The translations under genes and the position numbers were made by a program. From the IMG/VR virus record IMGVR_UViG_3300031760_000002, positions 64,001 through 128,000 of that record: a stretch of 64,000 bases of DNA. One strand, 5' to 3'. The notes under the pieces were generated by a model. That model saw nothing but the letters and a program-made list of their open reading frames with translations, had not been told where the DNA came from and ran no database searches. This document shows positions 1 through 58,172 of this stretch, in pieces (the stretch's first letter is position 1; the number at the start of each line of letters is the position of its first letter). This DNA is from a virus. Lineage: Duplodnaviria > Caudoviricetes.

Positions 1-925
1 GTACCTTTAAAACGGGTTTGTATTCGCACCCGTCCTGCACCTCTTCGTCTGAACCAGACCATACGTCTCCCGCGACGAGGTCAAACGAATCCTGGCCACC
101 GAGCGAAGCCAGTTCTATTTTCGGGCAAAGAAGCAAGGGAACCTGAAGTTGTATTCCGTATTTGCACCCGTCATACGCGTCGTCTTCCGATCCCGATTCC
201 GACAGATCTATCAGCGCGAACGGCCCTTCCGCCGTCTCTTCGGCGATATTGACGGACGGGCAGTAGATAGGGTCTAGGCTGAACGACGCGTCGAACCTGC
301 AATTGTCGTCGCATTCGTCGTTGCTGCAGGACCTCGATATGTCTATGTGAAGATGGCCGTCTTCCGTTTCGTCAGGGCTGCATCTGTCGATGACTTCGAC
401 GTTCGAACCTCCGGACACGTTTATGTTGGCCAGCATGCACGGCACGTCGAACGTGAACTTCTTCCGGAAGTCGCAGTTGTCGTCCGGTGTTCCGGTGCCA
501 CCCTCGGTGTCTCCGTCTCCTGGAAGGGATTCCTCCTTTATCTTTATGTTGCATCCCTCTTCCAGTACAAGCTCTATCGCCGGTACGCACGGAACTACTA
601 CCTCCGGTATCTTCAGGTCCAACGAATACAGGCCGACCGCGCAGTCCCCGCCGCTGCCTCCGCCGCCTCCGGTGCGCCACTCGGCGCTGAAGCCGCCGCC
701 ATACCCTATGTTGGCCTGCACGTCTATGCACGTTACGTCGACGCCAAACTGCACGTCCGGCATGTCTATGACGATCGGAGGGCGTTCGAACGAGGTAGGT
801 ACGAGGTCCGGCAGGTCGCAGGCCGATACGGTCACTATTTCGTCCGGATCCAACGGAGGGCATCCGTCGGGCATGTCGAACGCCCGGCGTACGCACTTTC
901 CAACTGTTTTTTCGCAATATGCCAT
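1..925 (-). CDS. Cys/acidic-rich virion structural protein (runs off the left edge; not in the ORF track)
   Basis: ATG at 925-923 overlaps the TAA of the upstream gene (TAATG). The frame MAYCEKTVGKCVRRAFDMPDGCPP... stays open to the window edge. The + ORF 390..938 is its antisense shadow. Confidence 0.8.
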   Translation of the reverse strand, partial: MAYCEKTVGKCVRRAFDMPDGCPPLDPDEIVTVSACDLPDLVPTSFERPPIVIDMPDVQFGVDVTCIDVQANIGYGGGFSAEWRTGGGGGSGGDCAVGLYSLDLKIPEVVVPCVPAIELVLEEGCNIKIKEESLPGDGDTEGGTGTPDDNCDFRKKFTFDVPCMLANINVSGGSNVEVIDRCSPDETEDGHLHIDISRSCSNDECDDNCRFDASFSLDPIYCPSVNIAEETAEGPFALIDLSESGSEDDAYDGCKYGIQLQVPLLLCPKIELASLGGQDSFDLVAGDVWSGSDEEVQDGCEYKPVLKV

Positions 926-1647
926 TACCTGTACATGAAGCTGTCTATTGTTGCCGACGTCTTTATGAACACGGCCGGTATGCCCTTGTATGTGCCGGAC
1001 GACACGGATACGCCGTCGTCGCCCTTTATCCAGATACTACCATCGGAATCGGACTTTTGTCCATTGAGATAATACAACACCCTGCCATGGCATATCTCGT
1101 TCCTCAGATCCGGGCATATCTGGCCCTTTCCGGCTCCACGAAGAACCTTCAACCGAAGCGCATTCCCGTATACGTCCAGCTCCGTATTGTGGCCATCTAC
1201 GGTCTTTACGGTGCCTACCGACGTCGTACCGCCGCATGACAGCGTATCGACCCCTATGCCATACGGCACCGACAGGACCCTGCTTCGAAGCATCCTTGCC
1301 GGCGACAGCAGAACATATTCGCCGTGCAGCCTTGACATGGATTCGCGGTCGCCGTACGTTATCCTGATCGACATCTCGCCGTCCGACTCTATGAACCTTT
1401 CAGACGATACATGGACGTCGCGATCGAACGCCTCCAACACGAGCCGTACGGACCCGTCCTCAGAAACAGACGCCGATTTCAGGAACACGTCGCTGTTCCT
1501 GTCGCCAAACATGCATACCCTGGCGTCGAGAACAACGGAGCTCGGAAGCGTCTTTCCGCCGCTGCACGAGAAGTCGCTGTCCTCCTCGAACGGAAACGCC
1601 CTGTATGCGTTCTGGTTCAGCCATTCCTGTCGTGTGCTACCTGCCAT
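925..1647 (-). CDS. Baseplate/tail-fibre attachment protein, paralog family member 5
   Basis: N-terminal QEWLNQNAYRAFPF and C-terminal LNGQKSDSDGSI motifs are shared with four upstream neighbours. Confidence 0.6.
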   Translation of the reverse strand: MAGSTRQEWLNQNAYRAFPFEEDSDFSCSGGKTLPSSVVLDARVCMFGDRNSDVFLKSASVSEDGSVRLVLEAFDRDVHVSSERFIESDGEMSIRITYGDRESMSRLHGEYVLLSPARMLRSRVLSVPYGIGVDTLSCGGTTSVGTVKTVDGHNTELDVYGNALRLKVLRGAGKGQICPDLRNEICHGRVLYYLNGQKSDSDGSIWIKGDDGVSVSSGTYKGIPAVFIKTSATIDSFMYR

Positions 1648-2653
1648 TTGAAAGCCCCGGTATGCTTATTTTTATCCCGTTTCCGATCTGAACGGGTCTC
1701 TTCAGCATCTTGCTGGCCTCGTTCACCATGGCGTCTGCGTCCATTTCGGGAAGTATCCTCGGGCTGCTGACCGACATCCTTCCTTCCACCGGTACGACAT
1801 GGACCGAGTTCTTCAAGCCTAGTATATCCTCCGCCACGAGGTTTATGTCCCCGACCTGGGAGGGGCACATCCATATCTCCTCCAGCTTGAACGGGGGAGG
1901 GACGGACGGGCACGGGGGTTCGTCGTTGCTGTCGTCGCATGTATCTACGACCGTCGAAACAGCGTCCTCCTGGTGCGCCTGCCAGCATACGTCCTCCCTG
2001 TCCATCGTAGGGGTCGTAAGCAGCACCGTGTCTTCGCTTTGTTCGCTTATGTCGAACACGGTCCTTCCGACCGCCACGAACAGGAGCTGCCTGACATACA
2101 GGGTGTCCGTCGGAAGCTCGTCGTTCTGCACGTCGAACGACAGCTCGGGCCCGGTATCCTTGTTCTCCAGAACGGGCGTAATGCATCCGTCTCCTACGAA
2201 TTCAACGAATTTCCTCGTGGTCCTGGACCCGTTTCCGACGTCGAACGAATGCACTCCCGGGTGCACGATGACGGAAACGGCGGACGACGCGAATTCGACG
2301 CCGTCGAACTCCCGAACCCGCATCGCCGAAGCCTCCCTGCCCCAACCCGGTCCGCATACCAGCGTACCGGCATGCCTTCCGAGCCCGTCATACAGCTCGA
2401 CCGATCCTCCGGAGAACGACCCGGAAATCGTTCCGTCTCCGACGGATATCTCGACGAGGCCGCCTTTGGAAAAATCCAGCAGCTTCAGAAGGGGGACGGC
2501 ATAGGAATCGACCACCGGATACAGGAATGCGTCGACGAACACGTCAGTTGCAAGCGCCGACGCGTCCCTGTCCTCCATGGACGCGGTCTCCGAGAACGGA
2601 TAGTTCCTGTACGAATTCTCGTTCTCGAACTCCTGGTATCTCTCGGATGTCAT
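1637..2653 (-). CDS. Baseplate/tail-fibre attachment protein, paralog family member 4
   Basis: Start refined to MTSERYQEFENENSYRNYPF, with an ATGA overlap at 2650-2653. Carries the family N-terminal motif. Confidence 0.6.
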   Translation of the reverse strand: MTSERYQEFENENSYRNYPFSETASMEDRDASALATDVFVDAFLYPVVDSYAVPLLKLLDFSKGGLVEISVGDGTISGSFSGGSVELYDGLGRHAGTLVCGPGWGREASAMRVREFDGVEFASSAVSVIVHPGVHSFDVGNGSRTTRKFVEFVGDGCITPVLENKDTGPELSFDVQNDELPTDTLYVRQLLFVAVGRTVFDISEQSEDTVLLTTPTMDREDVCWQAHQEDAVSTVVDTCDDSNDEPPCPSVPPPFKLEEIWMCPSQVGDINLVAEDILGLKNSVHVVPVEGRMSVSSPRILPEMDADAMVNEASKMLKRPVQIGNGIKISIPGLSNGR

Positions 2654-3372
2654 TCTACCTCCTTGAGTTCGGACTCGTCGTGAAGAAACACGACCGCTAT
2701 CCTGCCAAGTTCGTCCGGAACGACCCCGTTTATGTTCTTTATGGGCGGAGACATGGTCTTTGGGCCCGCGTCTACGTCGTAGCATGGGGACGGAACATGG
2801 CCCCTGATCGACGGGCCCGCCTCGAACACGACCTGGGAATTGTCCCCGTCCTCGTGCATCGAAATCGATATGCCGTCCGGAAAATCGAATCCGACTATGC
2901 CGGACGCCTCCTCCCCGGTCTCCACCTTTACGAATTTCTCAAGCCTTCCCACAACCGGCCTTGCAACGGCGGACTCGGACAGCGGGAGTCCAAGCCTGTA
3001 AGTCCGTTTCATTCCGAAATCGACGTTTCCGAACGTAACCATGCCGGATACGCCGGGCATTACCGATTCCATGGCGACGGGGGTGAAAGGCTCGTACCTG
3101 TCTTTCAGCACGTTGCAGTACAATGCCGGCTCCCCTCCAACCAGGATGAAAACAGACGCCATGGACGGGCCTATGTGCATTGATCCGACGGACACCTTGG
3201 CGTCCGACGGCGCCACCGACGACGGAACCACAACGAACGCGTCGACTATCGTGTCCCGCGGAAACCCGTCCGGAAGCGAATCGTCGGCGAACGGAAACGA
3301 CCTGTTGGCGTTTCCGCTCTCCCACTGTTCGGTCTCCACCGAATTACCGACAAGCCAGTTTGGCTGCATCAT
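2650..3372 (-). CDS. Baseplate/tail-fibre attachment protein, paralog family member 3
   Basis: ATGA overlap at 3369-3372. Motifs EQWESGNANRSFPF and INGVVPDELGRI. Confidence 0.6.
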   Translation of the reverse strand: MMQPNWLVGNSVETEQWESGNANRSFPFADDSLPDGFPRDTIVDAFVVVPSSVAPSDAKVSVGSMHIGPSMASVFILVGGEPALYCNVLKDRYEPFTPVAMESVMPGVSGMVTFGNVDFGMKRTYRLGLPLSESAVARPVVGRLEKFVKVETGEEASGIVGFDFPDGISISMHEDGDNSQVVFEAGPSIRGHVPSPCYDVDAGPKTMSPPIKNINGVVPDELGRIAVVFLHDESELKEVE

Positions 3373-5066
3373 GTCTCCTGCCTTACCGTTAGGTCCCTTC
3401 GAAGAGATTTCGTAGTCCAGCATTTGCCGTCTTCGTCCGGCAATATCTTCGGCATGTCATCTCCGCCGGAGTAGTCTCCGTCGTTGCTGTCCAGCGACAG
3501 GTCGACCTCGGGCTCCACGAAATTGTATTCCGGCAGGAAGTCGCCGAAATGCGCCGTGTAGTCAGCGTCGTTTGAATCGTTAGAATCGACGTCGAAAGCG
3601 GTATGCCAGTAAAGATCGTTGCTGAAGTCGTTGCTGTAGTCCGGGAAATCGCCACCGCCACCTTCCGGGCACTCTATCTCCTCCCTCCACGAGAAAATGA
3701 CGAAACCTTCAACCATGCACTCCTTGGACGGTGTTGTCGTCTTCCCCCTGGCACCGTACAGCCGTATCGTAACGCCGGATCCGGCCGGTACCGGTATGTT
3801 GTCCTTTACGAAGACGCCATCGCATTCTATGACGCGGTTGTTCACGCGGGTCCATGTGCTTCCGGCCCCGTTCGGCTCCAGTATATTCGCCATTACGATC
3901 TTCTGCGGGCTCATCTTGGCGACGACAAGCGCCTCGACGTCCTTCGCGGACATATTCTTTAGCGACACCACCGCCTGCGAACGATCGATCGATCCACTTA
4001 TCTGCTGGGAAAGCGGCTTCGAACTGAGACCCATGTTCTGGCTGTGCGCGTCGCCATGGTCGTATCCCTGCCCCATGATGACGATGCGCGCAACGAGCTC
4101 CTCCGGCTTCAGATGCTTCAGCCTCTCGTTGAACATCTCCGCCTGCCCGTTGTACGTGTATGCGCTGTCAATCAGGTCGTTATACGACGCTACGACGTCC
4201 TTGCTCTGCGACGCGAGCCTGTTGTTTATCTCCATGAACGCGTCGCACTGGCAGCATGCCGTGCACCTGCCGTTCAAAAGTATGTGCACGTTCTTTATAT
4301 AAGCTTGCGAAGCGTCTTTATGAAGCACCTGGTATACCCTGTGCTCATCCGGCGATATCTGGTAGCATTGGTCGGACTCGAACACCACGTTTCCGTCCTC
4401 GTCGGGCCTCATGGATCCCCTGTTCGGAACGATGTCGTTGCTGCAATCCTCGTCGCACGGCACCGTACCGAGGCCCAGACCCGGACCCGCCGCCACGACT
4501 ATGCCGTCCACGTCGTCCATGCCCGGCCTTACCGGTATGTACGACGCCATTCCCAGATCGTCTCCGACATAGGTGTTGTATCCGGCAAGTATCTTCACGT
4601 CACCCGTTATTCCAGCGTCCGTAAGGATATCCACGGACGACCCCGGATCATGGTTGTACAGCGATATGCTGGTGACTCGTTCCGGCTCGATCGAGCAGGC
4701 CGCCGGGTCCATCCTGTACGGACCGGCGAACGTCCTACCGGCCATCTCCCTCACGTGGTGGTTCTCCACAACGAAGAAGCACCACGACGACTTGGCGACG
4801 GAATAGACGGAATCCGACAGTGGCACGTCGAAATCGACGCTTGACGCCACCTTTCCGTCCTTTCCCACCTTCAATGCGGAAAACCTTATCGACGATACGC
4901 TGGGCTCTATGCTGCCTATGCACACGCGGAGGCCGTCCTCGTTGCGGTACAGCGTGGCAGAACCGTCGGCGAACATGCGCGCCGCGTCCCTGTCCAGCCC
5001 CGGGTCATCGCCGTCCAACGGCCATGCCGTATTGGTGTTAGACGTAAGGTATCCCACATTCGTCAT
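3369..5066 (-). CDS. Baseplate/tail-fibre attachment protein, paralog family member 2, with acidic SND-repeat tail
   Basis: Start MTNVGYLTSNTNTAWPL with AGGTG RBS. Contains RPDEDGNV and CTACCQC followed by a coiled coil. Confidence 0.6.
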   Translation of the reverse strand: MTNVGYLTSNTNTAWPLDGDDPGLDRDAARMFADGSATLYRNEDGLRVCIGSIEPSVSSIRFSALKVGKDGKVASSVDFDVPLSDSVYSVAKSSWCFFVVENHHVREMAGRTFAGPYRMDPAACSIEPERVTSISLYNHDPGSSVDILTDAGITGDVKILAGYNTYVGDDLGMASYIPVRPGMDDVDGIVVAAGPGLGLGTVPCDEDCSNDIVPNRGSMRPDEDGNVVFESDQCYQISPDEHRVYQVLHKDASQAYIKNVHILLNGRCTACCQCDAFMEINNRLASQSKDVVASYNDLIDSAYTYNGQAEMFNERLKHLKPEELVARIVIMGQGYDHGDAHSQNMGLSSKPLSQQISGSIDRSQAVVSLKNMSAKDVEALVVAKMSPQKIVMANILEPNGAGSTWTRVNNRVIECDGVFVKDNIPVPAGSGVTIRLYGARGKTTTPSKECMVEGFVIFSWREEIECPEGGGGDFPDYSNDFSNDLYWHTAFDVDSNDSNDADYTAHFGDFLPEYNFVEPEVDLSLDSNDGDYSGGDDMPKILPDEDGKCWTTKSLRRDLTVRQET

Positions 5067-5073
5067 GCGACAC

Positions 5074-6003: not shown

Positions 6004-6004
6004 G

Positions 6005-8998
6005 TCACTTAAGGGCGTTTATCATCCTGGTAAGTATCGTTACGAGATCGTAGCTGTTGGCCATCCTCGACGTCTTTGCGGCCGCCTTGCGCAGGTTCAG
6101 CACGGTCTGCGTAACCAGGTCGGCGACCTCGTCGTCGGAGGAGACGTCGATGTCGACGACCTTCTCTATCTCCCACCTGAGGTTGAGGATTCCGACGGCT
6201 CCCGTATACGGCGTACCGGAATCAGGATCCGACCTGGAGAAGCGGACGGATACCGTGTATCCGGGCTTTATGCCGAACACAGTACCCGAAAGCATGTTGG
6301 CGTCGAAGTACGACTTGCAATCGTCCTTAGTCGGAAAAGCGTGGTCCATGACCTGTACCGACTTGCCCAGCAGCGGATCGATCGACGAATCGTTATGGAT
6401 GAGCAGCGGATCGTACGCCGTGTACCGGTAGAACCCGTCGTTGCCCATGGTTCCGAACGGAACGTTCAATACGAACGGCTCGTCGGGTTTTATCAAGCCG
6501 GTCTTCAGGTTCGCGTTCTCCACCAGGCCCCCATTTACCGAATTGTAGTCAGGGAGGATATTGTAGTCCATCTTTATACCGGCCGTAAGCGGGACGTCGT
6601 TTCCGTCGAACGATTCCTCTCCGAACACGGTGGCGTAGAACTTGACCCTGTATACGCCGTATTCGGCGGTGGCCGGTACATGGAACTTGGCCACGAATCC
6701 GGTAGGTATGTTCGACCCGGATCCAGGCGTCCACTTCAAAAACCTGACATACGGGAACATGCCTATGGATTCCAGCTTCGCGTTCTCAAGGGCAACGGTC
6801 TCGAAATCCCCTGCGTACTGCGCCCCGTCGGCCGAAATGGTTACGGTGCCCTGCCCGTCCGGCATTCCGGACCTCTTCGATATGGATATGCCGGGACCGG
6901 CGACTATCTTCTCGACCAACGGGCCCAGAAGCAGCTTTCCGGACCTTGTCGCCTTCACCGCCTTGTATCCCTCCACGTTCATGTCGGATATGCCGAGCGA
7001 CAAATCAACGTCCAGCTCAAGGTCGCCGACGGTAGCGTCGTCCGTCGTACCGCACCTCTTTATCGTTATCGGGGAATCGACTGCCGGGTGCAGGGACGTA
7101 ACGGGGCCAGTTTCCGAGTGGAACTCGGAAACGAAATGGAACAGAAGCCTGTATTCGTCCTCCACGTCCACGTTCGGGTACGTGGACGGCCACGGCTGCC
7201 TCCCTTCCGTCGGATCCCTCCAGTAGATGCTGTCGTCCCCTATCGCGTACACCGCGGGAGAGTCGGCCCAGGTAGAACCCGGAAACATGTGGTACGACTC
7301 CAATTCGACCCCGTTAAGCATAAGCGACCCGGATCTGGCCGGGACCGGCGGAAAATGCTTCTTCAGGTCGTTGTCAAACTCGATATTGTACCTGTAGCAC
7401 GCACCGATGACCGGAAAGAAAACGGAAGCTTCCGCGGAGTCACCGACTTTCAGGGACCCGCTACCGACCAGCTTGTACGACATGCCGTTGTTCATGCCGA
7501 ACACGGTATACGGCTCGTCTATCTTGGACACCGATCGTCCTCCGATTCCTGACGACAGCGACTCTCCGGTTGCCTCGTCGAATACGACTGCGAACCACAC
7601 CTGGTCCGAATTGCTGTTTACGGGATCGGAACCGGCGACCTCGCCGAAACACAGCACCTGTTTCAAAAGCTCGTCGTATATGGCCGTATCGCACTCCATC
7701 GACAGCGCCACCATGGACTCGTACGGCGTTCCGCCCTTGAGAACCTTTATTGCGTCCTCGTGGCCCTCGGTACCGTCGCCGTTCACATTCGTGAACACGA
7801 AATCCTGTCCGTCTATCGTGATTACGCTGCCTATCGCATCGGACATTGACGTGAGATCGTAGACGTTTTCCGGCACATGGAACTTTATCTCGTTCTTCTG
7901 CCTGTTGGGATACCCGGACAGCACCAGGGTATAATCCCCGAACTGCGTATTGGCGTTCACCGAGCAGTCCGACCATCCCCTTGACGTCTTTCTGCTCACC
8001 GTCCATGTCCTGTCCTCAACGGAGGTCCATCCGGCCTGGAACGGGCTTGCTTCCGACATCCCGTAAGACGGTTCCAGCCTTACAGACATTCCAAGGTTGC
8101 CGATCATGGCCTCGTCGCCGAAGAACCTTATCTCCGCGCGTCCAGAACCGCTGTCTCCGCCATGGGCCGACCATGTGACGTAGCACGGCCACGAGGACGG
8201 CTCGTTGCCGGAGTCCGAAGATACCGATACGGTGTACGAAGCCTCGTCGGACGACGTGTAGTCGCCGCCTACGACAAGCCTTGGTATGCCGGAGAACGCC
8301 GGGGTGTCGCTCGAATCGTTGGAGTCCTCCGGCTCCACATAGTTGTCCGGATAGAAACCGACAACCCTTATCTTTCCGTTCTCCTCGACGGTAGTCCCGG
8401 CCGGCGCAGGCTCGAGGACGTACGTCCTGTGCGAATGCGCCTCTATGTCCATGTGCTGGGGGTTTATGATGGCGAACGAACCAGAATAAGTTCCGTTGAC
8501 CTGGGTATTTTCTGCAAAAAACCCAACCAGTATCCTAGGTCCAGTAGGAAATCTTGTTATCTTGCCCGGAGTGGACGACGACAGGTAGTACTGCCCGCTC
8601 ATGAACGTCTCGTCGGACATGGACCCGACGTCCAGATCGTGTATGTCGACCCTGCCGTAAAGGACGACCGTTCCGGTCATGTCGGTCTTCGATATAAGAA
8701 GTCCGACCGCATACGCCTTTTCGGACGCCGTATACGCGTCGTACAGGTCCATCGAAGCTATGGCCTTCCTGTACCTCTTGGTTTCAGGGTCTACGCACAC
8801 CACATCTCCGACAGACGGGGTATCCGACTCCGAAAGCAAAACCTGTATCTGGAGGCTCGAATGCCCGTCTCCGAGCTCGTCAAGCCGGTTCTTCAGGTAG
8901 TCCGTCCTGGCCGTAAGTTCGCCTATCGGCCTGTTGAACGTCTCAGCGTCTACGAACTGGCCGTCCCTGAGGCCCTTTACTTCGTTCCAAATAGCCAT
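6005..8998 (-). CDS. Large baseplate/tail-fibre-associated structural protein (997 aa)
   Basis: N-terminal NRPIGELTARTDYLK helix is typical of fibre/baseplate anchors. Beta-rich acidic composition. Lies downstream of the wedge genes. Confidence 0.55.
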   Translation of the reverse strand: MAIWNEVKGLRDGQFVDAETFNRPIGELTARTDYLKNRLDELGDGHSSLQIQVLLSESDTPSVGDVVCVDPETKRYRKAIASMDLYDAYTASEKAYAVGLLISKTDMTGTVVLYGRVDIHDLDVGSMSDETFMSGQYYLSSSTPGKITRFPTGPRILVGFFAENTQVNGTYSGSFAIINPQHMDIEAHSHRTYVLEPAPAGTTVEENGKIRVVGFYPDNYVEPEDSNDSSDTPAFSGIPRLVVGGDYTSSDEASYTVSVSSDSGNEPSSWPCYVTWSAHGGDSGSGRAEIRFFGDEAMIGNLGMSVRLEPSYGMSEASPFQAGWTSVEDRTWTVSRKTSRGWSDCSVNANTQFGDYTLVLSGYPNRQKNEIKFHVPENVYDLTSMSDAIGSVITIDGQDFVFTNVNGDGTEGHEDAIKVLKGGTPYESMVALSMECDTAIYDELLKQVLCFGEVAGSDPVNSNSDQVWFAVVFDEATGESLSSGIGGRSVSKIDEPYTVFGMNNGMSYKLVGSGSLKVGDSAEASVFFPVIGACYRYNIEFDNDLKKHFPPVPARSGSLMLNGVELESYHMFPGSTWADSPAVYAIGDDSIYWRDPTEGRQPWPSTYPNVDVEDEYRLLFHFVSEFHSETGPVTSLHPAVDSPITIKRCGTTDDATVGDLELDVDLSLGISDMNVEGYKAVKATRSGKLLLGPLVEKIVAGPGISISKRSGMPDGQGTVTISADGAQYAGDFETVALENAKLESIGMFPYVRFLKWTPGSGSNIPTGFVAKFHVPATAEYGVYRVKFYATVFGEESFDGNDVPLTAGIKMDYNILPDYNSVNGGLVENANLKTGLIKPDEPFVLNVPFGTMGNDGFYRYTAYDPLLIHNDSSIDPLLGKSVQVMDHAFPTKDDCKSYFDANMLSGTVFGIKPGYTVSVRFSRSDPDSGTPYTGAVGILNLRWEIEKVVDIDVSSDDEVADLVTQTVLNLRKAAAKTSRMANSYDLVTILTRMINALK

Positions 8999-9008
8999 GT
9001 CAAAACCC

Positions 9009-9641
9009 CTATTCGAAGGTTACCCGCCAGTCTATCGCCAATTCGTAGCTGTCCGGCTTCTTCCGGTACGTCTTTCCGTCCTTCGACAGATCGACCATGG
9101 CCAGCACGGTGTACTTTTCATCGTCGTCGCACGGTATTCCGTCGCCGAGCAACACGGCCCTGTACATGGTGTCACCGGAATGCAGCTTTCCGGCAAACCT
9201 GGAGTCTCCGGACGTATCCATCCCGTATTCACCGTCCACGTTTGACCTGGTAACGGCATGGAACTCGACCACGTTTCCGCGGTACAGGGGCTGGTCGTTG
9301 GAATCGACCACCTCGGATACGTCTATGGACGGTTTCCTGCTGAACCTGGCCACCTGTATGTTCCCTTCCAGATCCTTGGTCATCTGCCTGACATACTTCC
9401 AATCCATGTCCCTCGTTATCGGAGGAAGCGGATTCTCAGACTCCGGGCCGTAGATGAAACCTATGTATTTCGGTACCTTGGACGTGTCACCGCCGTACGC
9501 GGCGGCCAAAATGTCCGCGGCCGAATACGACATCATGTTGTTGGCCTCGAACGAATCTCCGCAGGATTCGCCGTCGGTCCACCTTGCACGGATCCGGCCG
9601 TGCGCCATGCTTGCCCTGTAGGTATCAGTCATCGTAGTCAT
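9009..9641 (-). CDS. Baseplate protein (fibre-attachment/wedge class)
   Basis: Follows the J/I-like wedge genes. C-terminal YELAIDWRVTFE strand resembles gpH-N/wedge proteins. Confidence 0.45.
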   Translation of the reverse strand: MTTMTDTYRASMAHGRIRARWTDGESCGDSFEANNMMSYSAADILAAAYGGDTSKVPKYIGFIYGPESENPLPPITRDMDWKYVRQMTKDLEGNIQVARFSRKPSIDVSEVVDSNDQPLYRGNVVEFHAVTRSNVDGEYGMDTSGDSRFAGKLHSGDTMYRAVLLGDGIPCDDDEKYTVLAMVDLSKDGKTYRKKPDSYELAIDWRVTFE

Positions 9642-11415: not shown

Positions 11416-11416
11416 G

Positions 11417-22037: not shown

Positions 22038-24416
22038 TTAAACTTTGAACTCGGACATCTTGTCGATCTTGAGTGATACGGAATCCTTCAACGCCTCCCT
22101 TGGCTTTGAAAACCCTTCCTCTATGTTTCCATCCCCGTACTTTACGAAGTTTCCGTCCGTGATCGGCCCCTTTCCCGGCCAACATTTCGTCCCATATACC
22201 TCCTTCGGCTCAGGCGTATACGGATTTCCTATAGCCATCGGGTCACCCACATCGTGCATGATCTGCCAATACGGCTCGTACAGCGTGAACGTCCCGTTCT
22301 TCTCCCACGGCTCTATTCCGGAGTTCGTCATCGCCTGCACAGCCGTCCTGAACGTGTATACGGCGTTGGCGCACACGTTGTCCCAGGTATACGGGTCCTC
22401 GATGCCGGAATCCTGCAGAATGGACCATATCTCCTTTATCCCCGACATATCCGGAGGAGAGGCGCTGCCGGACCATAGTATGGGAATCTGGTCTCCATTT
22501 ATGATCATGGCGCCGTCTCCTCCCCAAACCAGAGCCGAGTTCGGGGAAAGAAGGCCCGCGAAATTCTCGGTGGCGAGATAGGTGGTCTCCTCCACTATTC
22601 CGGCTACTAGCTTGGCACCCGTCATTATCGTGTTCTTTCCGTTCAGGAACACGTTTCCTTCCCTCGTGCTGCCATCCGGCCCTCCCCACACGAACACATT
22701 GTCCTCGCCGTTTACATAGGCGTTCTTTCCGCTTATCAGGACGCCGGCCGTCTTCGACCTAAGCACGACACCGCCTATAAACGCCGAAGACCCGGCTTCC
22801 GGCGGGGCCGAAACGGCCGGAGGAGACCCTATGGATTCCACCAGTACGCCTCCCGGAGACTCGTTGGATCCGCCGGCCATGGTGAGCAACTTCTTCGCAT
22901 GCACCCTGGTGTCGCCTTCGTCGGAAGACATTTCTGCCGCCCTTACGCCACGGATGACCACGCTGTTCCGGGCTATCGACACGATATCCTTGTTGGCCGT
23001 AGATATTATGTTTCCAGGCGTGCTTATCGTTACGTTCCCGCCGATCATGGTTATCTCGGAGCCCCAGGCGTCACGGATTATGACGCTGCCGTCCTCGCCT
23101 ATGAACACACCGGCCTTCCTTGTGGCGTACTTGGACTGCTCTATTTCGGTAGACCCCATCGGGTCCTTGTCCTGGTCTCCGGGAACATTTACGTCCTTTT
23201 CGTTCTTTACCTCGAAATCCTTCTTCAACTCGTCAAACCGCCTATACATGGTTCTTTGCTCCCATGCCATGCGGCTCGCCTCTGCTATGCCCCTGGAATG
23301 CGGGTCTTCGACCTTGAACGGCCTGAACGGCTCATGCGTGGTTTCCACCTCCCTGTCGCCCTTCGGATCCCACGGCTCCACAAGCCTTTTCGGAATCGGT
23401 ATCTTGGGGTACTTCTCGAGCGATATTCCACCGGTGCTCCTCACCATGATGTTTCCGCCCTGGCTGCCATGTACGCTGACAAGGGTTTCGTCATCCGTTT
23501 TCGGAGTTTCCCTGGCCCTGACGGTGAACCAGCTGAAGATATTGCCAAGGAACCCCTTCCACCATCTGCTCCTCGGCCTGGGCTCCTTTCCTTCCGTATC
23601 CTTGGGAAGTTCATACCTGGGACCCTCCAGCCCTTTCGTGCCGAGAAGTTCGCCCTGGTACGAATAGTTCCTACCCTCCGAAGAAATGTATCCGCCGTCG
23701 TTGAACTCGGATAGCGCCTCGTGGTTGGTCCACTTGGTAAAATTGGTCGACCTGATCTTTATCTCGTCGTCAAGCCTTCCTACGCGAACGAAACTGTTCC
23801 CTCCGGACAATTCGACGTCGAACAGCGTAGTTGTGACGCCGCAATGGTTCTCGTTTATAAGCAGCGAGTCCCCCGGAACGATATCCTGTGGCCTCTCCGC
23901 GTTCGACCACAACCTGCCGGTGTATTCGCTGCCCTTGTACGGTATATAGTACGCCGAATTATCAAGATACGGGTTCTCGAGTTCTCCGCCCGTAGGGTAG
24001 TTCTCAAACAGGCTTACGGGATCCGAGTCGTTTGACGCGAGATGCTGCGACCTCGGGGCGGACCCTATGATCCATCCGCATGCGCTGGACCCCTCCTTCA
24101 TCAGGACGAACACAACGGTGCCTTCGACCGGAATCTCGCCCCTGGATACTCCGAATCCCTGCGATGTCTGCGAAACAAGTATGTTGCACGGCACCTCGTA
24201 CATTCCGACTTTGACGGAGCAGTCATACCCGCCAACGCCGGACCGTATTACTATGCCCTGCTCCACAATGTACGAATTGCGCTTTCCAAGGAATCTCCTT
24301 CCCTCGGATCCGGTAGGATCGTACGAAACCTTGCCTACGCCCGTCGAACCGGCTATCCTCGAAGCGAGGAGATACGGTGTATAGTCTGGATGGTTCTGTA
24401 TCATGGATACGTGCAT
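22038..24416 (-). CDS. Central tail spike (gp5/VgrG-like)
   Basis: N-terminal OB-fold motif PVEGTVVFVL..WIIGS and beta-helix segment GSVIIRDAWGSEITMIGGNVTISTPGNI. The start may be MIQNH at 24404. Confidence 0.65.
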   Translation of the reverse strand: MHVSMIQNHPDYTPYLLASRIAGSTGVGKVSYDPTGSEGRRFLGKRNSYIVEQGIVIRSGVGGYDCSVKVGMYEVPCNILVSQTSQGFGVSRGEIPVEGTVVFVLMKEGSSACGWIIGSAPRSQHLASNDSDPVSLFENYPTGGELENPYLDNSAYYIPYKGSEYTGRLWSNAERPQDIVPGDSLLINENHCGVTTTLFDVELSGGNSFVRVGRLDDEIKIRSTNFTKWTNHEALSEFNDGGYISSEGRNYSYQGELLGTKGLEGPRYELPKDTEGKEPRPRSRWWKGFLGNIFSWFTVRARETPKTDDETLVSVHGSQGGNIMVRSTGGISLEKYPKIPIPKRLVEPWDPKGDREVETTHEPFRPFKVEDPHSRGIAEASRMAWEQRTMYRRFDELKKDFEVKNEKDVNVPGDQDKDPMGSTEIEQSKYATRKAGVFIGEDGSVIIRDAWGSEITMIGGNVTISTPGNIISTANKDIVSIARNSVVIRGVRAAEMSSDEGDTRVHAKKLLTMAGGSNESPGGVLVESIGSPPAVSAPPEAGSSAFIGGVVLRSKTAGVLISGKNAYVNGEDNVFVWGGPDGSTREGNVFLNGKNTIMTGAKLVAGIVEETTYLATENFAGLLSPNSALVWGGDGAMIINGDQIPILWSGSASPPDMSGIKEIWSILQDSGIEDPYTWDNVCANAVYTFRTAVQAMTNSGIEPWEKNGTFTLYEPYWQIMHDVGDPMAIGNPYTPEPKEVYGTKCWPGKGPITDGNFVKYGDGNIEEGFSKPREALKDSVSLKIDKMSEFKV

Positions 24417-24987: not shown

Positions 24988-27636
24988 CTAGATCTCCAGG
25001 TCGAGGTCGAAGTAGTTAAACGGAACCGGCAGGTTGAGATGAACCTTCGCGTACACATGGTCGCGGTTCACCTCGGACTGGCGCAGCTCCACGATCTCCG
25101 TGCCGTCGGCGATGACCTGCGGTCCGTAGAGGCCCGCGGCCGTGTCGGTCTCGAGGTACGACAGTCCGGTCGACAGCCTGGAACGGATCACGTTGAGAAG
25201 CTCCGGCGTGATGTTGTACTTGCCGATCATCGGAGCGAACAGCTCCGCGAAGTAGTACGAGATCGAGTCGAGGTTCTTCGTGATCGAGAGCTCCGACTTC
25301 ATGAGGTTGCCCTCGCTGTAAGCCGTGGAGATCTGGTGGCGTACGTAGACCTGTGAGCCTGGACGGTCCTGCATGACGATGAAGGTTCCGCCGGCGGCGA
25401 TCGTGTTCAGCTGGTCCCTGGAGTAGGTCTGGTAGACGACCGGGATGTCTCCGATTCCGTTGAGCTCAACGTTGGTGATGGGCTGCTGCGGAAGCACGGA
25501 CGACGCGAGGCCGGCGGCAGCGGCGGCGATGAACTCGCCCGTAAAGGCGATTCCATCGGTCGACGCCACGGACGGGAACACGTTGTACATGCGGCGGGTG
25601 GCCAGCGAGCTGGATATGTCCGCGATGTACTGCACCTGCTGCTCCGGCGTGAGCTTGCGGTAGACCTCGACCTTGAAGTGGTTTCCGGTCTTTCCGTTCG
25701 GGATCATGTCCGGCGAGCAGTAGTCGTTGCCCGTGTCTCCGTCGTCGATCGTTTCGTCCCCGGCGCATTCGTACACCGGCTTCGTCAGCTGGAGCACGCT
25801 GTTGGAGAGGATCTTCTTGACGTAGCGCTCCGTGTAGTGGGGCGTGTCGTCCCAGTCGTCGTCGCTGTTGTCCAGCCAGATCTTGACGACGTCGCCGACC
25901 TTGACGTCCTTGAGGCACTTCACGGTCGTGTTGATCGTGTCGTCGTTTACGTCGTCGTCCTTCATGAACTGGACGAGGTTCGCGCCTTCGGTGTACGGAT
26001 CGCGGTCCTTGAAGACGAACTTCAGGTAGAAGTCGGTCTTGCTCGGGTTGTTCGTCTGGTCGTAGATCGTGTCGGTGGCCGGAGGGGTCTGCGAGACGAA
26101 CCCGACGCGCCACAGCTTGTTCTGGGCGGTGGACATCGACTCGACATGGGCCTTGACCGCATCGATCACCATCTCGTTTCCGGACAGCGGTACGATGAAG
26201 TAGACCTCGTCCGTGAGCGTGGCCTTGTCCAGAACCGCATTGTATCCGGACAGGTCGTCCGTCGGAACGCCGCAGTAGTACACGAGCCTGTCGCCGGAGT
26301 TGAGCGCCGTCATGTAGACGCCAAACGCCAACGGGTTGTCAGGATGGACCGTGCCGAGCGCGTTCTCGACGAGAGCGGCCGACGCGATGGACGTGATGTC
26401 GTCCGAGGCCGCCGTAATGAGATCGCGGTGCTCGACGAACAGCCTCGCGGACAGAACCCTGTACTCCGGGGAAAGACCGGTTGCGGGGTCGGAGGGATCC
26501 CAGTTGGAATACCTCGCCTTGAGGTTGCCCGTGATGACCACGCCGAACACGTCTTCGTCGTTTCCGGCCTCGGTGTCGGAGTAGGAATCCCAGTTCCACA
26601 CATGGCGCACGACGGTCTTCCTCGGGATAAGGACGTTAGAGAACTGTGCGCAGAGCTGGACGGCGCCGAGTATGTCAGTTCCGTCGTCGTTGCTGTCCTG
26701 GTCGTTGCTGTCGCACTCTCCCCTGTCGTACGGATAGACCGGATGGATGGTGTTGTCCTCCTCGGCCTTGAAGAATTCGGTGGTGTACTCCACGGAATAC
26801 TCGTCGTCAGGATCCGCCGGTATGGTCTCGGTGGTCATCGGGAAATCGTCCGGAAGCGTGTCGGCGAGCTGTACGCTGTCGAAGATCCCGCTGTCCTTGA
26901 CGGACTCGAACACCTCGACGATCGTGGACTTGTAGACATGTGGCTTCTCGTCCGTACCCATGTACGGGATCCTGATGGCGTCGCCGGCGTTGATGCTCCT
27001 CGGGAAGTTCTTCATCTGGCCGGGCTTGAGGGCTCCGGTCGGATCGACGTAGCTTCCATCGTAGCTGATGGCGAAGTACGGGGTCAGCTCCTTTCCGCAG
27101 CCGTCGACGCACTTGCCGTCCTCCGGCTTCAGGTAGCAGCGGCACACGTACTTTGTCGCGAATCCACGCTTGTCGCCGGTGAGGGCGTAAGGGAAGCGAA
27201 GCCTGGCGTCGAGGCCGGCCGTCTCCTTGTCGTCCAGGAAGTAGAAGCTTCCGAGGGACGCGAGCTTGATCGTGACCTCGTCGGCGTACACCTTGCTGTA
27301 GTCCGCGTCCGGTACGGTGGCCGAAGCCTGGGCCGGGTACGGGATTACCGGTCTGCTCGAAAGGTTGTCGACCTTGAGCTTCTCGTTCTCGTACGCGTTT
27401 CCGTTCTCGACCGAATACTCGACGTTAGAGGTATCAACAACGGTGCCGCCACCCTCCTGTCCGGACGGATTGACGTAGTCGCCGATGTAGATCTTGGTCT
27501 TCTCATCCGCGACATCGTAGCGGAAGAGCTCGTAGTTGGGGCCGATCACCAATACGTTCTGATTCCTGATGGTATTGAGCTGTACCTCCGAAATCAGTTG
27601 GTTGATCAGGACCTGCGGGACAATGTAGTTAGCCAT
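24988..27636 (-). CDS. Contractile tail sheath protein
   Basis: C-terminal VRHQIST..ELSITKNLDSISYYF..IGKYNITP..LPVPFNYFDLDL sheath domain. Strong C-ending codon bias typical of a highly expressed gene. Confidence 0.85.
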   Translation of the reverse strand: MANYIVPQVLINQLISEVQLNTIRNQNVLVIGPNYELFRYDVADEKTKIYIGDYVNPSGQEGGGTVVDTSNVEYSVENGNAYENEKLKVDNLSSRPVIPYPAQASATVPDADYSKVYADEVTIKLASLGSFYFLDDKETAGLDARLRFPYALTGDKRGFATKYVCRCYLKPEDGKCVDGCGKELTPYFAISYDGSYVDPTGALKPGQMKNFPRSINAGDAIRIPYMGTDEKPHVYKSTIVEVFESVKDSGIFDSVQLADTLPDDFPMTTETIPADPDDEYSVEYTTEFFKAEEDNTIHPVYPYDRGECDSNDQDSNDDGTDILGAVQLCAQFSNVLIPRKTVVRHVWNWDSYSDTEAGNDEDVFGVVITGNLKARYSNWDPSDPATGLSPEYRVLSARLFVEHRDLITAASDDITSIASAALVENALGTVHPDNPLAFGVYMTALNSGDRLVYYCGVPTDDLSGYNAVLDKATLTDEVYFIVPLSGNEMVIDAVKAHVESMSTAQNKLWRVGFVSQTPPATDTIYDQTNNPSKTDFYLKFVFKDRDPYTEGANLVQFMKDDDVNDDTINTTVKCLKDVKVGDVVKIWLDNSDDDWDDTPHYTERYVKKILSNSVLQLTKPVYECAGDETIDDGDTGNDYCSPDMIPNGKTGNHFKVEVYRKLTPEQQVQYIADISSSLATRRMYNVFPSVASTDGIAFTGEFIAAAAAGLASSVLPQQPITNVELNGIGDIPVVYQTYSRDQLNTIAAGGTFIVMQDRPGSQVYVRHQISTAYSEGNLMKSELSITKNLDSISYYFAELFAPMIGKYNITPELLNVIRSRLSTGLSYLETDTAAGLYGPQVIADGTEIVELRQSEVNRDHVYAKVHLNLPVPFNYFDLDLEI

Positions 27637-31051: not shown

Positions 31052-31075
31052 GTTGAAGTCTCCTTTCATTCTAGG

Positions 31076-35545: not shown

Positions 35546-36050
35546 AGACTTCTTCCTTCACAAGGTTTGAATTTATCTTCCTAAGCCTGTCGACGGCCTT
35601 GGCGATACGTTTCACAATCTCGTCTGCCCAAGACCTGGCACACAGGGCAGGGTCGTCGAAATCTTCCTCCCCGAATTCGACAAGTATCGGCATGTCGCTC
35701 CTGATCTTTTTCTCCTGTTCCGGAAGCTCGAAGCAGCAATCGTCATCATTGCTTTCATCGCAGCCGCAGTCTCCGCTCTGCGACGTAAGCTCTACGATAC
35801 CTGGATCCGTACCGTACCCGCTGTCCAGATCGTCCCGTACGATCATGCCAAGTTCCCTGTCCAGCCTGCCTTTTCTCCTGCCGTGCCGTTTGATGCACTT
35901 CGTGCAATGCTTGAGAAACTTTCCTCCGATCTGGATCGTAGGCTCCCCAAACCTGACGATCAGGTCGAGCTCGTGCCTGCTCCAGTCGTCGGTGGATATC
36001 ACGACGCTGAGAACGGAATTTATCCTGTTCTGGTTTACCCTTACCTTCAT
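35535..36050 (-). CDS. Hypothetical protein with Cys/acidic insert
   Basis: Start refined to MKVRV by ATGA overlap. Contains CGCDESNDDDCC. Confidence 0.6.
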   Translation of the reverse strand: MKVRVNQNRINSVLSVVISTDDWSRHELDLIVRFGEPTIQIGGKFLKHCTKCIKRHGRRKGRLDRELGMIVRDDLDSGYGTDPGIVELTSQSGDCGCDESNDDDCCFELPEQEKKIRSDMPILVEFGEEDFDDPALCARSWADEIVKRIAKAVDRLRKINSNLVKEEVYEF

Positions 36051-37439: not shown

Positions 37440-38378
37440 TCAAGTGTCTCCTTTTGAAACTGATTTTACAACATTTCTACCGCTTTCGTCCAACTCAACG
37501 GAAGCCACAGCCGACTCGGCCCTCAGCCTTGCGGCTGTTGCCTCCTCTCGCATCCTGGCCTCGTCGACCCCCTTCGCCGTAGCGTCTATGACGGTAGGCG
37601 ACACAAGCCGCAGCATGTCCTGCATGGCTCTAACCATGCCTATGTCGGACTGGCCGGAATTCTTTCCGTCGGCTATTAGCTTCTGCTGGGCCGATATCGC
37701 CGAAAGAAGCTTTGCCATCGACTCATGCCCGACACGGTCCGCGAACATCGACATGAACAGCCTGGACTGTGCGAGCCTCCACATCTCGTCAAGGAGATAC
37801 TCCTGCGATTTGTTCTTTATGCCGTGGGCATCCTTCCACAGCCATACGGACACGAGCGTGTCGTACCCCATCAAGGAGCCGATCATCTTCCACATCTGTT
37901 CGGGCGGCGTGTCCTGGTTGAATTCGCCTGACGGAAGCGCAAAATACTGTCGAAGCTGGCACGACCTCGACAGACGGCCTTCGGAATCCCTGATATTGAA
38001 ATACAGCTTCTCGTACGCGATTATGGCGCCTATGTCCTGCCTGTCTCCAAGCAGATCCATGGAAATGGTGTCGTAGCTCGCTGCGGTGAGAAGCAGCGGC
38101 TCAAGCCTGAACCTTACATCGGATACGTTCGAACCCTGGAACCACAGGCTCGCAAGCCTTAGTTCAACCTGCTCCTTCGTGAGTATCGCGTTCCTCTTTA
38201 TGGCGCGAAAATACGAAAGCTGCTTCTTTACCCACGGGTCGTTCCTGTACCTTGCGTATACCGGGTCTATCCTGTCGTTGGATTCTGTCAACGCGACGGC
38301 AAGCTCATTGCGCCAATCCGGGTCGTACTGGCCCGGATTGTCCATAGGCGTTACTATGACCGTATCGTTGATCCGCAT
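37440..38378 (-). CDS. Hypothetical protein
   Basis: Co-oriented 312-aa ORF abutting its neighbours. No motif recognised. Confidence 0.6.
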   Translation of the reverse strand: MRINDTVIVTPMDNPGQYDPDWRNELAVALTESNDRIDPVYARYRNDPWVKKQLSYFRAIKRNAILTKEQVELRLASLWFQGSNVSDVRFRLEPLLLTAASYDTISMDLLGDRQDIGAIIAYEKLYFNIRDSEGRLSRSCQLRQYFALPSGEFNQDTPPEQMWKMIGSLMGYDTLVSVWLWKDAHGIKNKSQEYLLDEMWRLAQSRLFMSMFADRVGHESMAKLLSAISAQQKLIADGKNSGQSDIGMVRAMQDMLRLVSPTVIDATAKGVDEARMREEATAARLRAESAVASVELDESGRNVVKSVSKGDT

Positions 38379-45871: not shown

Positions 45872-45900
45872 ATTAAAGCATTTTCCAAAAAATAATGCAA
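45872..45900 (-). promoter_or_regulatory. Sigma70-type promoter
   Basis: TTGCAT-N17-TTTAAT with extended TGn, in the AT-rich intergenic gap. Confidence 0.6.
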
Positions 45901-45979
45901 CAGACTAAAAGCTCGCAGCCACCGCATTTTTAAGCGCAAATGCTAGCATGGTCTTGTTCATACGGCCCAGCACTTCGCC

Positions 45980-57069: not shown

Positions 57070-57083
57070 CGAACACCTCCACA

Positions 57084-57578: not shown

Positions 57579-57599
57579 TTTGTACCTCTGTTCATGCGC

Positions 57600-57628
57600 A
57601 TTATACACAATACGTCACGAAATGTCAT
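57600..57628 (-). promoter_or_regulatory. Sigma70-type promoter at the start of the head/RNAP block
   Basis: ATGACA-N17-TATAAT, with TGTG immediately upstream of the -10. Confidence 0.65.
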
Positions 57629-58172
57629 TAGATTCGTCGTTGGAATCGCCGGCGCCGCCGTAAATCCTCGCCGCCCTGATCCGCTCGGCCATTCCCCGGT
57701 CCCCGGCAAGCCTTGCATAGTCCTCCGCCGCGGCAAGGTATCCTATTGCCTTGGCCTTGTTTGAATCGATGTCCATGCCGGCGCCGGACGCATTGTCCAC
57801 CAGGGACAGCAGCAAGCCCTCGGCGTCCAGGTTGCAATCGCCGAACAGCTCTCCTATTGCGACGCGGCACATGTCCGACACCTCGGTGCATTTCAAAGCC
57901 TCGGCATGCTCCTTGGCGCACAGCAGGTTTCCAAGGCATAGAAGCTTCTCCGCCTGCCTGGATCTGTCCTCGTTGTATTCTACGAACTGCCTGTACGCGG
58001 CAGATATATGCTTAGCCAGGCAATTCCAGCATGCCAACGGGCTCTTCCCATCCCTAAGCTCGACTGGTATGTAGGCGACGTACCTCGGAGCCGGACCTGA
58101 CGATCCGGCCTCTTCGGAAAACGCCTTCGCCATGCGGGCTTCGGCCGATTTCTTGGAACAATTGCAAGACAT
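57615..58172 (-). CDS. Cys-rich hypothetical protein with C-terminal DSNDESND
   Basis: MSCNC start, CWNCLAKH motif and an internally duplicated (L/I)GxLxxAxxxA helix. Confidence 0.6.
   Translation of the reverse strand: MSCNCSKKSAEARMAKAFSEEAGSSGPAPRYVAYIPVELRDGKSPLACWNCLAKHISAAYRQFVEYNEDRSRQAEKLLCLGNLLCAKEHAEALKCTEVSDMCRVAIGELFGDCNLDAEGLLLSLVDNASGAGMDIDSNKAKAIGYLAAAEDYARLAGDRGMAERIRAARIYGGAGDSNDESNDIS

Follow-up and report, generated by a model that had tools for sequence, protein, structure and literature searches.

A copy-variable D-S-N-D short linear motif in tail-fibre and sheath proteins of a clade of large myophages

The Ser-Asp repeats of the staphylococcal Clf/Sdr adhesins, which are glycosylated, and the (Asp-Ser-Ser)n repeats of dentin phosphophoryn are periodic low-complexity sequences on surface or secreted proteins that are modified (with GlcNAc or phosphate) and/or bind Ca2+. 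Bacterial PglB-type N-glycosylation uses the sequon D/E-X-N-X-S/T. Some actinobacteriophages glycosylate their virions, with glycosyltransferases near the structural genes and modification of exposed virion parts, and we are not aware of any dispersed acceptor tetrapeptide in that glycosylation. The usual ligands of Ca2+ include Asp, Asn and Ser. The Dx[DN]xDG motif has evolved in loops of many kinds (PMC3123361), Asp-rich motifs of disordered proteins have Ca2+ affinities of ~100 uM (PMC8391695), and PMC3396595 describes a Ca2+ motif, GxDGxx[GN][TN]xDD, inserted in variable copy number among bacterial homologues of animal peroxidases.

The tetrapeptide Asp-Ser-Asn-Asp described here recalls each of these systems and differs from each. 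The Clf/Sdr and phosphophoryn repeats are long arrays forming stalks or mineral binders in one protein, whereas here 1 to 7 units are spread over many virion proteins and the Asn is fixed; arrays of the type (SSD)n and (STD)n do occur in the same loops of homologues. Like the Dx[DN]xDG loops and Asp-rich Ca2+ motifs, the sites are short, acidic, D/N/S-rich and of independent origin in surface loops (PMC3123361, PMC8391695), but the conserved unit is D-S-N-D without Gly, with Ser and Asn fixed at its second and third positions. The peroxidase-homologue system is likewise a short acidic motif whose number of insertions varies among homologues, but it has another consensus, concerns one protein family and is not viral. 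A full-text search of a paper library returned nothing on a DSND motif.

The window analysed is a stretch of 64,000 nucleotides (positions 64,001-128,000) of a 176.8-kb myophage genome (G000), compared with three relatives (G001, G002 and G003), a fibre locus of 4.8 kaa (L012) and sets of homologues; relatives in the clade come from human faecal and other metagenomes. For DSND, chance occurrence was gauged by shuffling residues inside whole proteins and inside local stretches of 12 to 40 aa (500 shuffles). A preliminary description of the window had counted about 16 SND in nine proteins, nine of them DSND, and had estimated that fewer than one DSND should arise by chance. Our recount gives 17 SND in 10 proteins (6 expected), the additional one being TESNDR at 38274-38285, and nine DSND in six proteins; the shuffles bear out the estimate, with a mean of 0.4-0.5 DSND and a maximum of 3 in 500. 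Every site it had listed was found on the minus strand, within 1 to 8 bases of where it had been placed. Split by genome block, the excess is confined to the tail and fibre block (13 SND against 2.7 expected, 8 DSND against 0.20). Neither motif is in excess in the head or RNA polymerase blocks, and the remainder of the genome is also at expectation (8 SND, 1 DSND).

Counting sites more than 10 aa apart singly leaves 7 DSND against 0.39 expected (p = 2e-7), and by this separate-site count a tetrapeptide as extreme as DSND is present in 0.7% of shuffled proteomes. Among the relatives, DSND occurs 15 times in G002 (0.52 expected) and 5 times in G001 (~0.5 expected), SND occurs 15 times in the L012 fibre locus against an expectation roughly estimated at 1.3, and one fibre homologue carries as many as 11 SND; G003 shows little enrichment, with 2 DSND against 0.95. 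To chance plus a few local duplications we assign next to no probability. The per-protein count in G000 alone (6 against 0.42) does fail look-elsewhere correction, but the separate-site test passes, the excess is replicated in G001, G002, L012 and the homologue sets, and the motif is conserved; in our view the G002 count, the conservation and the separate-site test already refute this explanation.

The residues and their order are specific. Among DxND tetrapeptides x is Ser in 10 cases and every other residue occurs at most four times, and the motif residue is likewise dominant in DSxD, xSND and DSNx, so that all four positions contribute; permutations of D, S, N and D occur 0 to 3 times each, with the reverse orders at background. 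Ser is preceded by D in 54% of sites, and no constraint is seen on the residue that comes after it (E, Q, G, L, C or aromatic, directly behind SND). At the DNA level the pattern occurs in the coding frame only (18/0/0 by frame in the window), codons of both classes encode Ser, in agreement with the genome-wide codon-pair bias, and tandem copies differ between units in their Ser, Asn and Asp codons. The signal therefore lies at the protein level, as the mixed codons had first indicated.

Most sites lie in distal tail-fibre proteins, all on the minus strand. A 708-aa collagen-like (GPT)n fibre protein, whose gene extends beyond the window start (genome positions 62799-64925), carries SND at residues 201-203 (317..325; SC-SNDE-CDDNC), and a 382-aa fibre-module protein (1637-2785) carries DSND at residues 285-288 (1922..1933; TC-DDSNDEPP-CP). 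In a 575-aa fibre protein (3369-5096) SND directly follows an invariant VPC...DC (4434..4442), where relatives have DDSND-C-DSND, and five further SND units (YSNDFSND, DSNDSND and DSNDGD; 3480..3635) lie near the C-terminus within an insert of ~85 aa that is bracketed by Cys residues, is predicted with pLDDT <50 and is missing in more distant homologues; the SND residues of this insert are invariant in four orthologues. A 997-aa fibre protein (6005-8998) has DSND in a loop insertion (EPEDSNDSSD, 8315..8326), whereas in orthologues the motif is found not in this loop but in two different ones. A 210-aa protein (9009-9641) has DSND (9294..9305) in a hypervariable acidic loop of pLDDT ~53, which in homologues is expanded to forms like SNDSNDSNGSND and DSSDSNDSNDSND.

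The tail sheath (24988-27636, minus strand) contains DSNDQDSND followed by DGTD (26686..26712) inside an insertion of ~40 aa that is kept in G001 and missing from the sheath of G003. The remaining sites are also on the minus strand: ESND between cysteines in a 190-aa protein (35535-36107; CGC-DESNDDD-CC at 35745..35756), and DSNDESND(IS*) forming the C-terminal tail of a Cys-rich 194-aa protein (57615-58199; 57624..57647), an extreme C-terminal placement that recurs in G001 and G003. Two occurrences are of lesser weight. The SND of ASNDSD (24027..24035) in the 792-aa protein adjoining the sheath gene (22038-24416) has no conserved counterpart in G001 and may have arisen by chance, and the ESND of TESNDR (38274..38285), in a conserved region of a 312-aa protein (37440-38378) and adjacent to Arg, is probably an ordinary one.

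In four families (the 210-aa protein, the 575-aa and 997-aa fibres and the sheath) the motif thus occupies lineage-specific insertions that shift between loops, in 1 to 7 copies. Between orthologues that are ~63% identical overall, 71 of 72 SND residues are identical (98.6%), against 56% for the rest of the insert and 54% for other D, S and N residues. Shortness, location in disordered or variable regions, conservation relative to the flanks and positional turnover among orthologues are the features of short linear motifs, and (D)SND is one, under selection and variable in copy number, with the core D-S-N-D. In one clade of large myophages, from gut or rumen, it has been gained by insertion time and again, both in the acidic, flexible loops of virion proteins and in their C-terminal tails. 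AlphaFold models give low confidence at the mapped sites, and the regions are probably flexible or exposed. The preliminary description had proposed a shared tag on outward-facing tail and baseplate proteins, possibly glycosylated. The tag itself holds, as a protein-level signal under purifying selection in indel-rich, low-pLDDT segments of tail, fibre and sheath proteins; its glycosylation role is only partly supported. The host range and stability of a phage and its interaction with its surroundings are set by tail fibres and sheath surfaces, and here a whole clade keeps adding a four-residue unit to those surfaces and then conserves it near perfectly. Whatever the unit does, its sites show where surface loops of several virion proteins tolerate insertion, and since it can be synthesised as a peptide it offers a concrete handle.

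The same data bear on the proposal that DSND serves as an acidic, hydrophilic spacer without any specific ligand, by which the clade would obtain soluble, non-sticky loops of adjustable length, growing by slippage of 9-nt units and spreading by recombination among fibre genes. Variable copy number, the SSD and STD arrays and the low pLDDT would all suit such a spacer, and giant viruses and bacteria widely carry similar (xND)n arrays as microsatellite or low-complexity sequence. An 18-nt periodicity in the (SND)7 array of G002 suggests local duplication, and on that evidence some duplication does occur. We nevertheless consider a spacer unlikely: SND is conserved at 98.6% where neighbouring D, S and N reach ~55%, residue order is specific, most sites in G000 are single units and not arrays, and tandem copies differ in codons. 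Judged by DNA identity and neutral evolution, the mixed codons and this difference in conservation place the motif apart from slippage-derived low-complexity repeats. DSND is not a domain, a DNA-level element or neutral filler.

As a working mode we tentatively prefer divalent-cation chelation, in which the motif loops are predicted to bind Ca2+ or Mg2+. The side chains of Asp, Asn and Ser would chelate the cation within tandem units, or between copies that oligomeric fibres and sheath rings bring together; closure of the loop may be helped by a nearby Cys, and floppy loops would be stiffened or bridged, making virion stability or adsorption cation-dependent. Such binding could explain cation-dependent stability or adsorption of uncultured gut or rumen phages. 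In its favour, basic residues are scarce around the motif (Lys or Arg at 20% of sites, where 54% would be expected), Cys is enriched upstream (within 12 aa at 34% of sites across the clade, against 18% at random positions), and the second sheath unit, DSNDDG, matches Dx[DN]xDG. The Excalibur and thrombospondin type 3 (TSP3) classes are Cys-flanked, as are some sites here. The loops had been called mostly Cys-flanked, which is too strong: beside the 34% with an upstream Cys, 11% of sites across the clade have Cys on both sides (4% at random).

Against chelation, the fixed Ser, the fixed Asn and the order exceed what generic Ca2+ ligands need, one DSND by itself cannot complete the coordination shell of Ca2+, and movement from loop to loop and location in C-terminal tails are more typical of sequons or linear motifs than of metal sites. 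By sequence pattern the sites fall outside the Dx[DN]xDG and EF-hand-like loops, which have additional ligands at loop positions 9 and 12: canonical Dx[DN]x[DNS]G is not enriched in G000 (4 against 5.5 expected), the sheath DSNDDG is its sole overlap with an SND site, and Pfam returned no match to EF-hand, Excalibur, TSP3, dockerin or another Ca2+-binding family among the window proteins.

It is possible, though doubtful, that DSND instead marks flexible loops and tails of the virion for modification or recognition, either as a sequon for an enzyme of phage or host, with Ser or Asn glycosylation as the leading candidate, or as a motif for docking a partner. Favoring this reading are the exact ordered tetrapeptide on unrelated proteins, its strict conservation inside variable low-confidence segments, its position at extreme C-termini, and its movement between loops with changing copy number among orthologues, as is seen for viral sequons. 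The enzymes initially proposed for it did not survive inspection: the ORFs put forward as glycosyltransferases, at 43338-45326 and 59213-59890, had no PHROG match, no PDB-sequence match at E up to 1 and, in Pfam at E up to 10, only a sub-threshold match to a family that is not a glycosyltransferase (Trans_reg_dom, E 0.044). A Pfam sweep of all window proteins detected no glycosyltransferase, and sweeps covering most ORFs of at least 70 aa detected no kinase and no radical-SAM enzyme. A real candidate lies just outside the window and adjoins the fibre genes, namely a 776-aa protein (G000:56375-58705) that matches the GT2 family PF00535 above the curated cut-off (E = 9.7e-27, 94 bits), has a second, weaker GT2-like domain and is followed by a TupA-like ATP-grasp enzyme. 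In contrast to the actinobacteriophages, the only clear glycosyltransferase here is this double GT2 with its ATP-grasp partner; GT2 plus TupA-type ATP-grasp is also a typical polysaccharide cassette that could serve another role.

Co-occurrence of glycosyltransferase and motif, proposed as a check, neither supports nor refutes glycosylation. Motif-rich G002 holds an orthologue of the double-GT2 protein, but G003 has GT2 genes with almost no enrichment, so that glycosyltransferase presence does not track motif density among G000, G002 and G003; the sequence of G001 ends before the GT2 region. Compared with the PglB-type sequon, tandem DSNDS fits exactly and D is common at -2 of Asn, but Ser stands at +2 in only 27% of sites (36 of 133 distinct contexts), the residue after SND being free, and the sites as a whole do not conform to D/E-X-N-X-S/T. 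Phage virions, moreover, assemble in the cytoplasm, a difference from PglB-type N-glycosylation. DSND is a real functional tag, but its glycosylation is only partly supported, and we regard it as somewhat unlikely that a phage activity (the GT2/ATP-grasp candidate) or a host activity decorates fibres and sheath through it, with the motif acting as a dispersed sequon that accepts the modification or as a docking tag. If so, the clade would own a programmable surface coat, made denser or sparser in evolution as four-residue units are gained or lost, and the motif, if modified, would to our knowledge be the first description of a dispersed sequon for phage virions.

The genome also encodes a caspase-family C14 peptidase, and an S8 subtilase lies directly downstream of the fibre genes (65-88% identity in G000, G002, G003 and L012), so DSND could be a protease cleavage site, DxxD for the former or a site for the latter. 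We consider this very unlikely, cuts inside loops of sheath and fibres being implausible. The C14 enzyme has the metacaspase-type motifs YSGHGG and DCCHSGT, with GSU0716 and metacaspases as best PDB matches, from which we infer a preference for Arg or Lys at P1; its C-P-Y-D segment stands at what we take to be the site of the metacaspase acidic S1 pocket. These motifs and matches set it apart from proteases with Asp at P1, and we know of no subtilases that prefer acidic sites.

A related C-terminus was also noted. The putative major capsid protein had been said to end in DSNG, and the 330-aa protein at 30077-31069, the candidate in question, does so (30080..30091, minus strand). In G003, a 329-aa protein without a BLAST match to G000 ends in NDSNDSNV.

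All copies of the motif Asp-Ser-Asn-Asp (DSND) and its SND core that the preliminary description had listed are present, and across the window SND appears 17 times, in 10 proteins (~6 expected from composition), and DSND 9 times, in 6 proteins (~0.4 expected). The claimed enrichment was borne out in shuffled controls, which gave a maximum of 3 DSND in 500 trials (residues shuffled across each protein or inside local 12-40-aa segments) against the 9 observed. Because the motif was chosen post hoc and some copies are tandem, the count was repeated with only those sites lying more than 10 aa apart, yielding 7 DSND versus 0.39 expected (p = 2e-7). Any tetrapeptide as extreme as DSND appeared in only 0.7% of shuffled proteomes, and the sole stronger tetrapeptide in the real data is PTGP, which originates from a collagen-like tract; when distinct proteins are counted, the DSND signal alone is not decisive. 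All four positions are specific: DxND has Ser at x in 10 instances and every other residue in at most 4, the other three positions behave equally, and permutations of the D, S, N and D residues occur 0 to 3 times each. The suggested excess in structural proteins was likewise recovered, with 13 SND (2.7 expected) and 8 DSND (0.20 expected) in the tail and fibre block, and it is restricted to this block; counts in the head-side and polymerase blocks and elsewhere in this virus genome (G000) match expectation.

The degenerate DNA pattern WSN-AAY-GAY occurs in window genes 18 times in frame 0 and 0 times in frames 1 and 2 of the sense strand. The motif's serine is encoded by both codon classes, and tandem copies in related phages differ in their codons. 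AGC is over-used at this serine codon and tracks the preceding codon; outside DSND sites, serine is encoded by AGY in 44% of cases after GAC versus 11% after GAT. A DNA-level motif is therefore ruled out by the coding-frame-only pattern and by an AGC bias that the preceding codon explains, and the signal lies at the protein level, as originally proposed.

Three related genomes were found in IMG/VR, namely G001 (143.5 kb; sheath 82% identical), G002 (162 kb; 43 of 196 proteins match, median identity 52%) and G003 (151 kb with terminal repeats, 38% GC; 82 of 186 proteins match), and metagenome protein sets provided 33 homologues of the 210-aa protein (9009-9641) and 17 of the 575-aa fibre (3369-5096). 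DSND is found 15 times in G002 (0.52 expected), spread over 7 proteins, and 5 times in G001 (about 0.5 expected), and the 4.8-kaa fibre locus L012 contains 15 SND. Enrichment in G003 is slight (SND, 21 versus 14 expected; DSND, 2 versus 0.95 expected). Single fibre homologues carry up to 11 SND, in forms such as SNDSND, DSNDCDSND, ESNDHSNDNSNDSND and FC-D(SND)7-CP. Chance as the source of the pattern is effectively excluded by this replication in relatives. A search of viral contigs for (xND)4 arrays led to G002; its matches, more than 119, were mostly AT-rich low-complexity stretches of giant viruses or arrays of TND, RND and CND. Searching bacterial genomes for (DSN)3D, which was uninformative as to host and function, picked up chiefly 9-nt tandem repeats that lie in short ORFs and look non-coding, and that are numerous in Vicinamibacterales genome bins. 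Each genome represented by loci L188-L258 (Vicinamibacterales and other Acidobacteriota bins) has dozens of such 9-nt tandem repeats, dispersed and reading as (SND)n or (PND)n; as these mostly fall in very short ORFs, a non-coding, microsatellite-like nature is probable.

In four protein families the motif resides within lineage-specific insertions. DSND in the 210-aa protein occupies an indel-rich loop between two conserved strands, which in other family members reads SNDSNDSNGSND, DSSDSNDSNDSND, STDSTDSTDSND or SSDSSDSSES, or is absent. The 575-aa fibre family holds SND segments at no fewer than five distinct insertion points, and a Cys-bracketed insert of about 85 aa (ECP...GKCW) contains five of the units of G000. 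In the 997-aa fibre (6005-8998) the motif is found in three different loops across G000 and G002, none common to both. The tail sheath (24988-27636, minus strand; PHROG 279, E 2e-16) carries DSNDQDSND inside an insertion of about 40 aa that G000 and G001 possess and G003 lacks; the DSND of the G003 sheath is located elsewhere, at the position of a four-Cys insert of G000/G001. DSND has been gained, lost and changed in copy number often. AlphaFold2 assigns pLDDT values of about 53 to the loop in the 210-aa protein and under 50 throughout the fibre inserts, although the fibre model is poor throughout (mean pLDDT 59.5), so that its low values mean little beyond "not a confidently folded core". 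These values are consistent with loops of flexible or context-dependent structure; the virion-protein insertions in which the motif lies are modelled with low confidence and are probably flexible. A fold search with the model of the 210-aa protein gave no match at E ≤ 0.001.

Among 133 distinct contexts the surroundings are acidic, with D directly preceding the serine in 54%, and basic residues are scarce: 20% of sites have a Lys or Arg no more than 3 residues away, versus 54% expected. The description of the sites as mostly Cys-flanked holds in part: Cys is moderately enriched, occurring within 12 aa upstream at 34% of sites (18% at random) and on both sides at 11% (4% at random), but "mostly" is too strong for these frequencies.

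In four orthologues of the 575-aa fibre, which share about 63% identity, 71 of 72 comparisons of residues in SND units show identity; the remainder of the insert is 56% identical and other D/S/N residues are 54% identical (Fisher p about 1e-14, the four orthologues being mutually non-independent). In the nearest homologues of the 210-aa protein [DE]-SND is likewise retained and the flanks vary. DSND is therefore a specific tetrapeptide conserved by selection, and conservation of SND against changing surroundings rules out neutral filler; an inert hydrophilic spacer is hard to reconcile with it as well, making this explanation improbable. Searched against 1.8 billion representative proteins, a 111-position profile over the SND-rich fibre insert matched its own cluster only, so by this profile the insert is not a known domain.

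Tentatively, our first choice of working mode is that DSND loops would chelate cations. In favour of it are side chains of ligand type, the avoidance of basic residues, occasional closure by Cys, a sheath unit that fits Dx[DN]xDG exactly, and published precedents for labile Ca2+ loops (PMC3123361, PMC8391695, PMC3396595). Against chelation, the canonical Ca2+ pattern is not enriched, Ser and Asn are fixed too strictly, and the motif shifts between loops and also occurs in C-terminal tails. The strict Ser/Asn, the movement from loop to loop and the C-terminal-tail sites favor instead a modification or recognition tag, which we consider possible but somewhat unlikely. The only candidate enzyme for it is a cassette of glycosyltransferase family 2 (GT2) and ATP-grasp genes whose modification of the motif is putative. 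DSND resembles both known acidic Ca2+ loops and Ser-Asp repeats, yet the membership tests that were run placed it in neither, and a full-text literature search found no description of DSND or SNDSND as such a motif; that it constitutes a new dispersed sequon is unlikely in our estimation. The probability left over belongs to functions outside the readings considered.

The two ORFs initially named as glycosyltransferases that might act on such a sequon (43338-45326 and 59213-59890) match no family or solved structure, and a Pfam sweep of window proteins detected no glycosyltransferase. The GT2 cassette lies just before the window on the plus strand (G000:C1:56375-59557) and encodes a 776-aa double-GT2 protein (56375-58705) followed by a TupA-like ATP-grasp enzyme; these genes adjoin the fibre genes and an S8 subtilase (G000:C1:61099-62082, minus strand). 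A sub-threshold GT8-like match is also present in G000. The subtilase directly follows the fibre genes in G000, G002, G003 and L012 at 65-88% identity. GT2 genes and high motif density coincide in G000 and the motif-rich G002, whose double-GT2 orthologue is 39% identical, and GT2 genes accompany weak enrichment in G003; G001 has no GT2, but this absence carries no weight, its contig ending inside the fibre module before this region and also lacking the otherwise conserved S8 gene. This distribution, the check suggested in the preliminary description, speaks neither for nor against glycosylation.

A C14 peptidase (G000:C1:134019-134942, minus strand), detected 6 kb past the window end in a genome-wide Pfam sweep, has orthologues in G001, G002 and G003. 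It has the motifs YSGHGG and DCCHSGT, matches GSU0716 and the metacaspases of yeast and trypanosomes best among PDB entries, and is a candidate Lys-specific processing protease. As the enzyme is of metacaspase type, caspase cleavage of DSND was rejected, and a role of the motif as a protease site is very improbable.

The virus record is a single sequence of 176,839 bp with 57% GC, of which the window covers 64,001-128,000, and essentially all real genes of the window are on the minus strand. Among window proteins, the Pfam sweep identified pieces of a multisubunit RNA polymerase together with a sigma factor. Outside it, G000 encodes LpxR (lipid A deacylase), anaerobic NrdD (ribonucleotide reductase), ThyX, a family-A DNA polymerase, an isochorismatase and a destabilase-type lysozyme along with the C14 and S8 peptidases, a gene content that hints at a Gram-negative anaerobic host. 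The IMG dataset from which one relative originates was co-assembled from human faecal samples, according to a preprint. When 8.3 kb of the window were compared with GenBank phages by megablast there was no match, and tblastn with the sheath gave only distant matches to Vibrio and Salmonella phages (29-33% identity).

The gene for a baseplate-J wedge protein (11417-13045) is followed downstream by a series of fibre-like proteins, four of which (925-1647, 1637-2785, 3369-5096 and 5074-6003) have in common an N-terminal EWLNQN..YRA.PF-type segment (EWLNQNAYRAFPFEED, EWLNQNSQRAYPFCED, ENENSYRNYPFSE and LTSNTNTAWPLDGDD), probably a shared baseplate-attachment domain on paralogous fibres. Another, of 708 aa (window 1-925, the gene extending to genome position 62799), has 25 Cys N-terminally and a long collagen-like (G-P-T)n tract of about 250 aa. 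The 575-aa fibre and its homologues (alignment A2) contain an invariant G-[RK]-C-T-A-C-C-Q-C and several more invariant Cys, which may form a metal or disulfide cluster, and the four-Cys insert of the G000 and G001 sheaths (residues about 170-195, CRCYLKPEDGKCVDGCGK), missing from G003, looks like a zinc-knuckle-like insertion. A 983-aa protein (window 62327-64000, continuing to genome position 129278) has no Pfam or PHROG match and consists in part of about 27 tandem nine-residue repeats C-[SY]-S-N-T-F-G-S-[DYN], with NTFG occurring 18 times versus 0.16 expected; the single Cys per repeat suggests a Cys-ladder beta-helix or fibre. Five tandem DPAAMGGMPPG repeats are present in a 178-aa protein (42380-42916).
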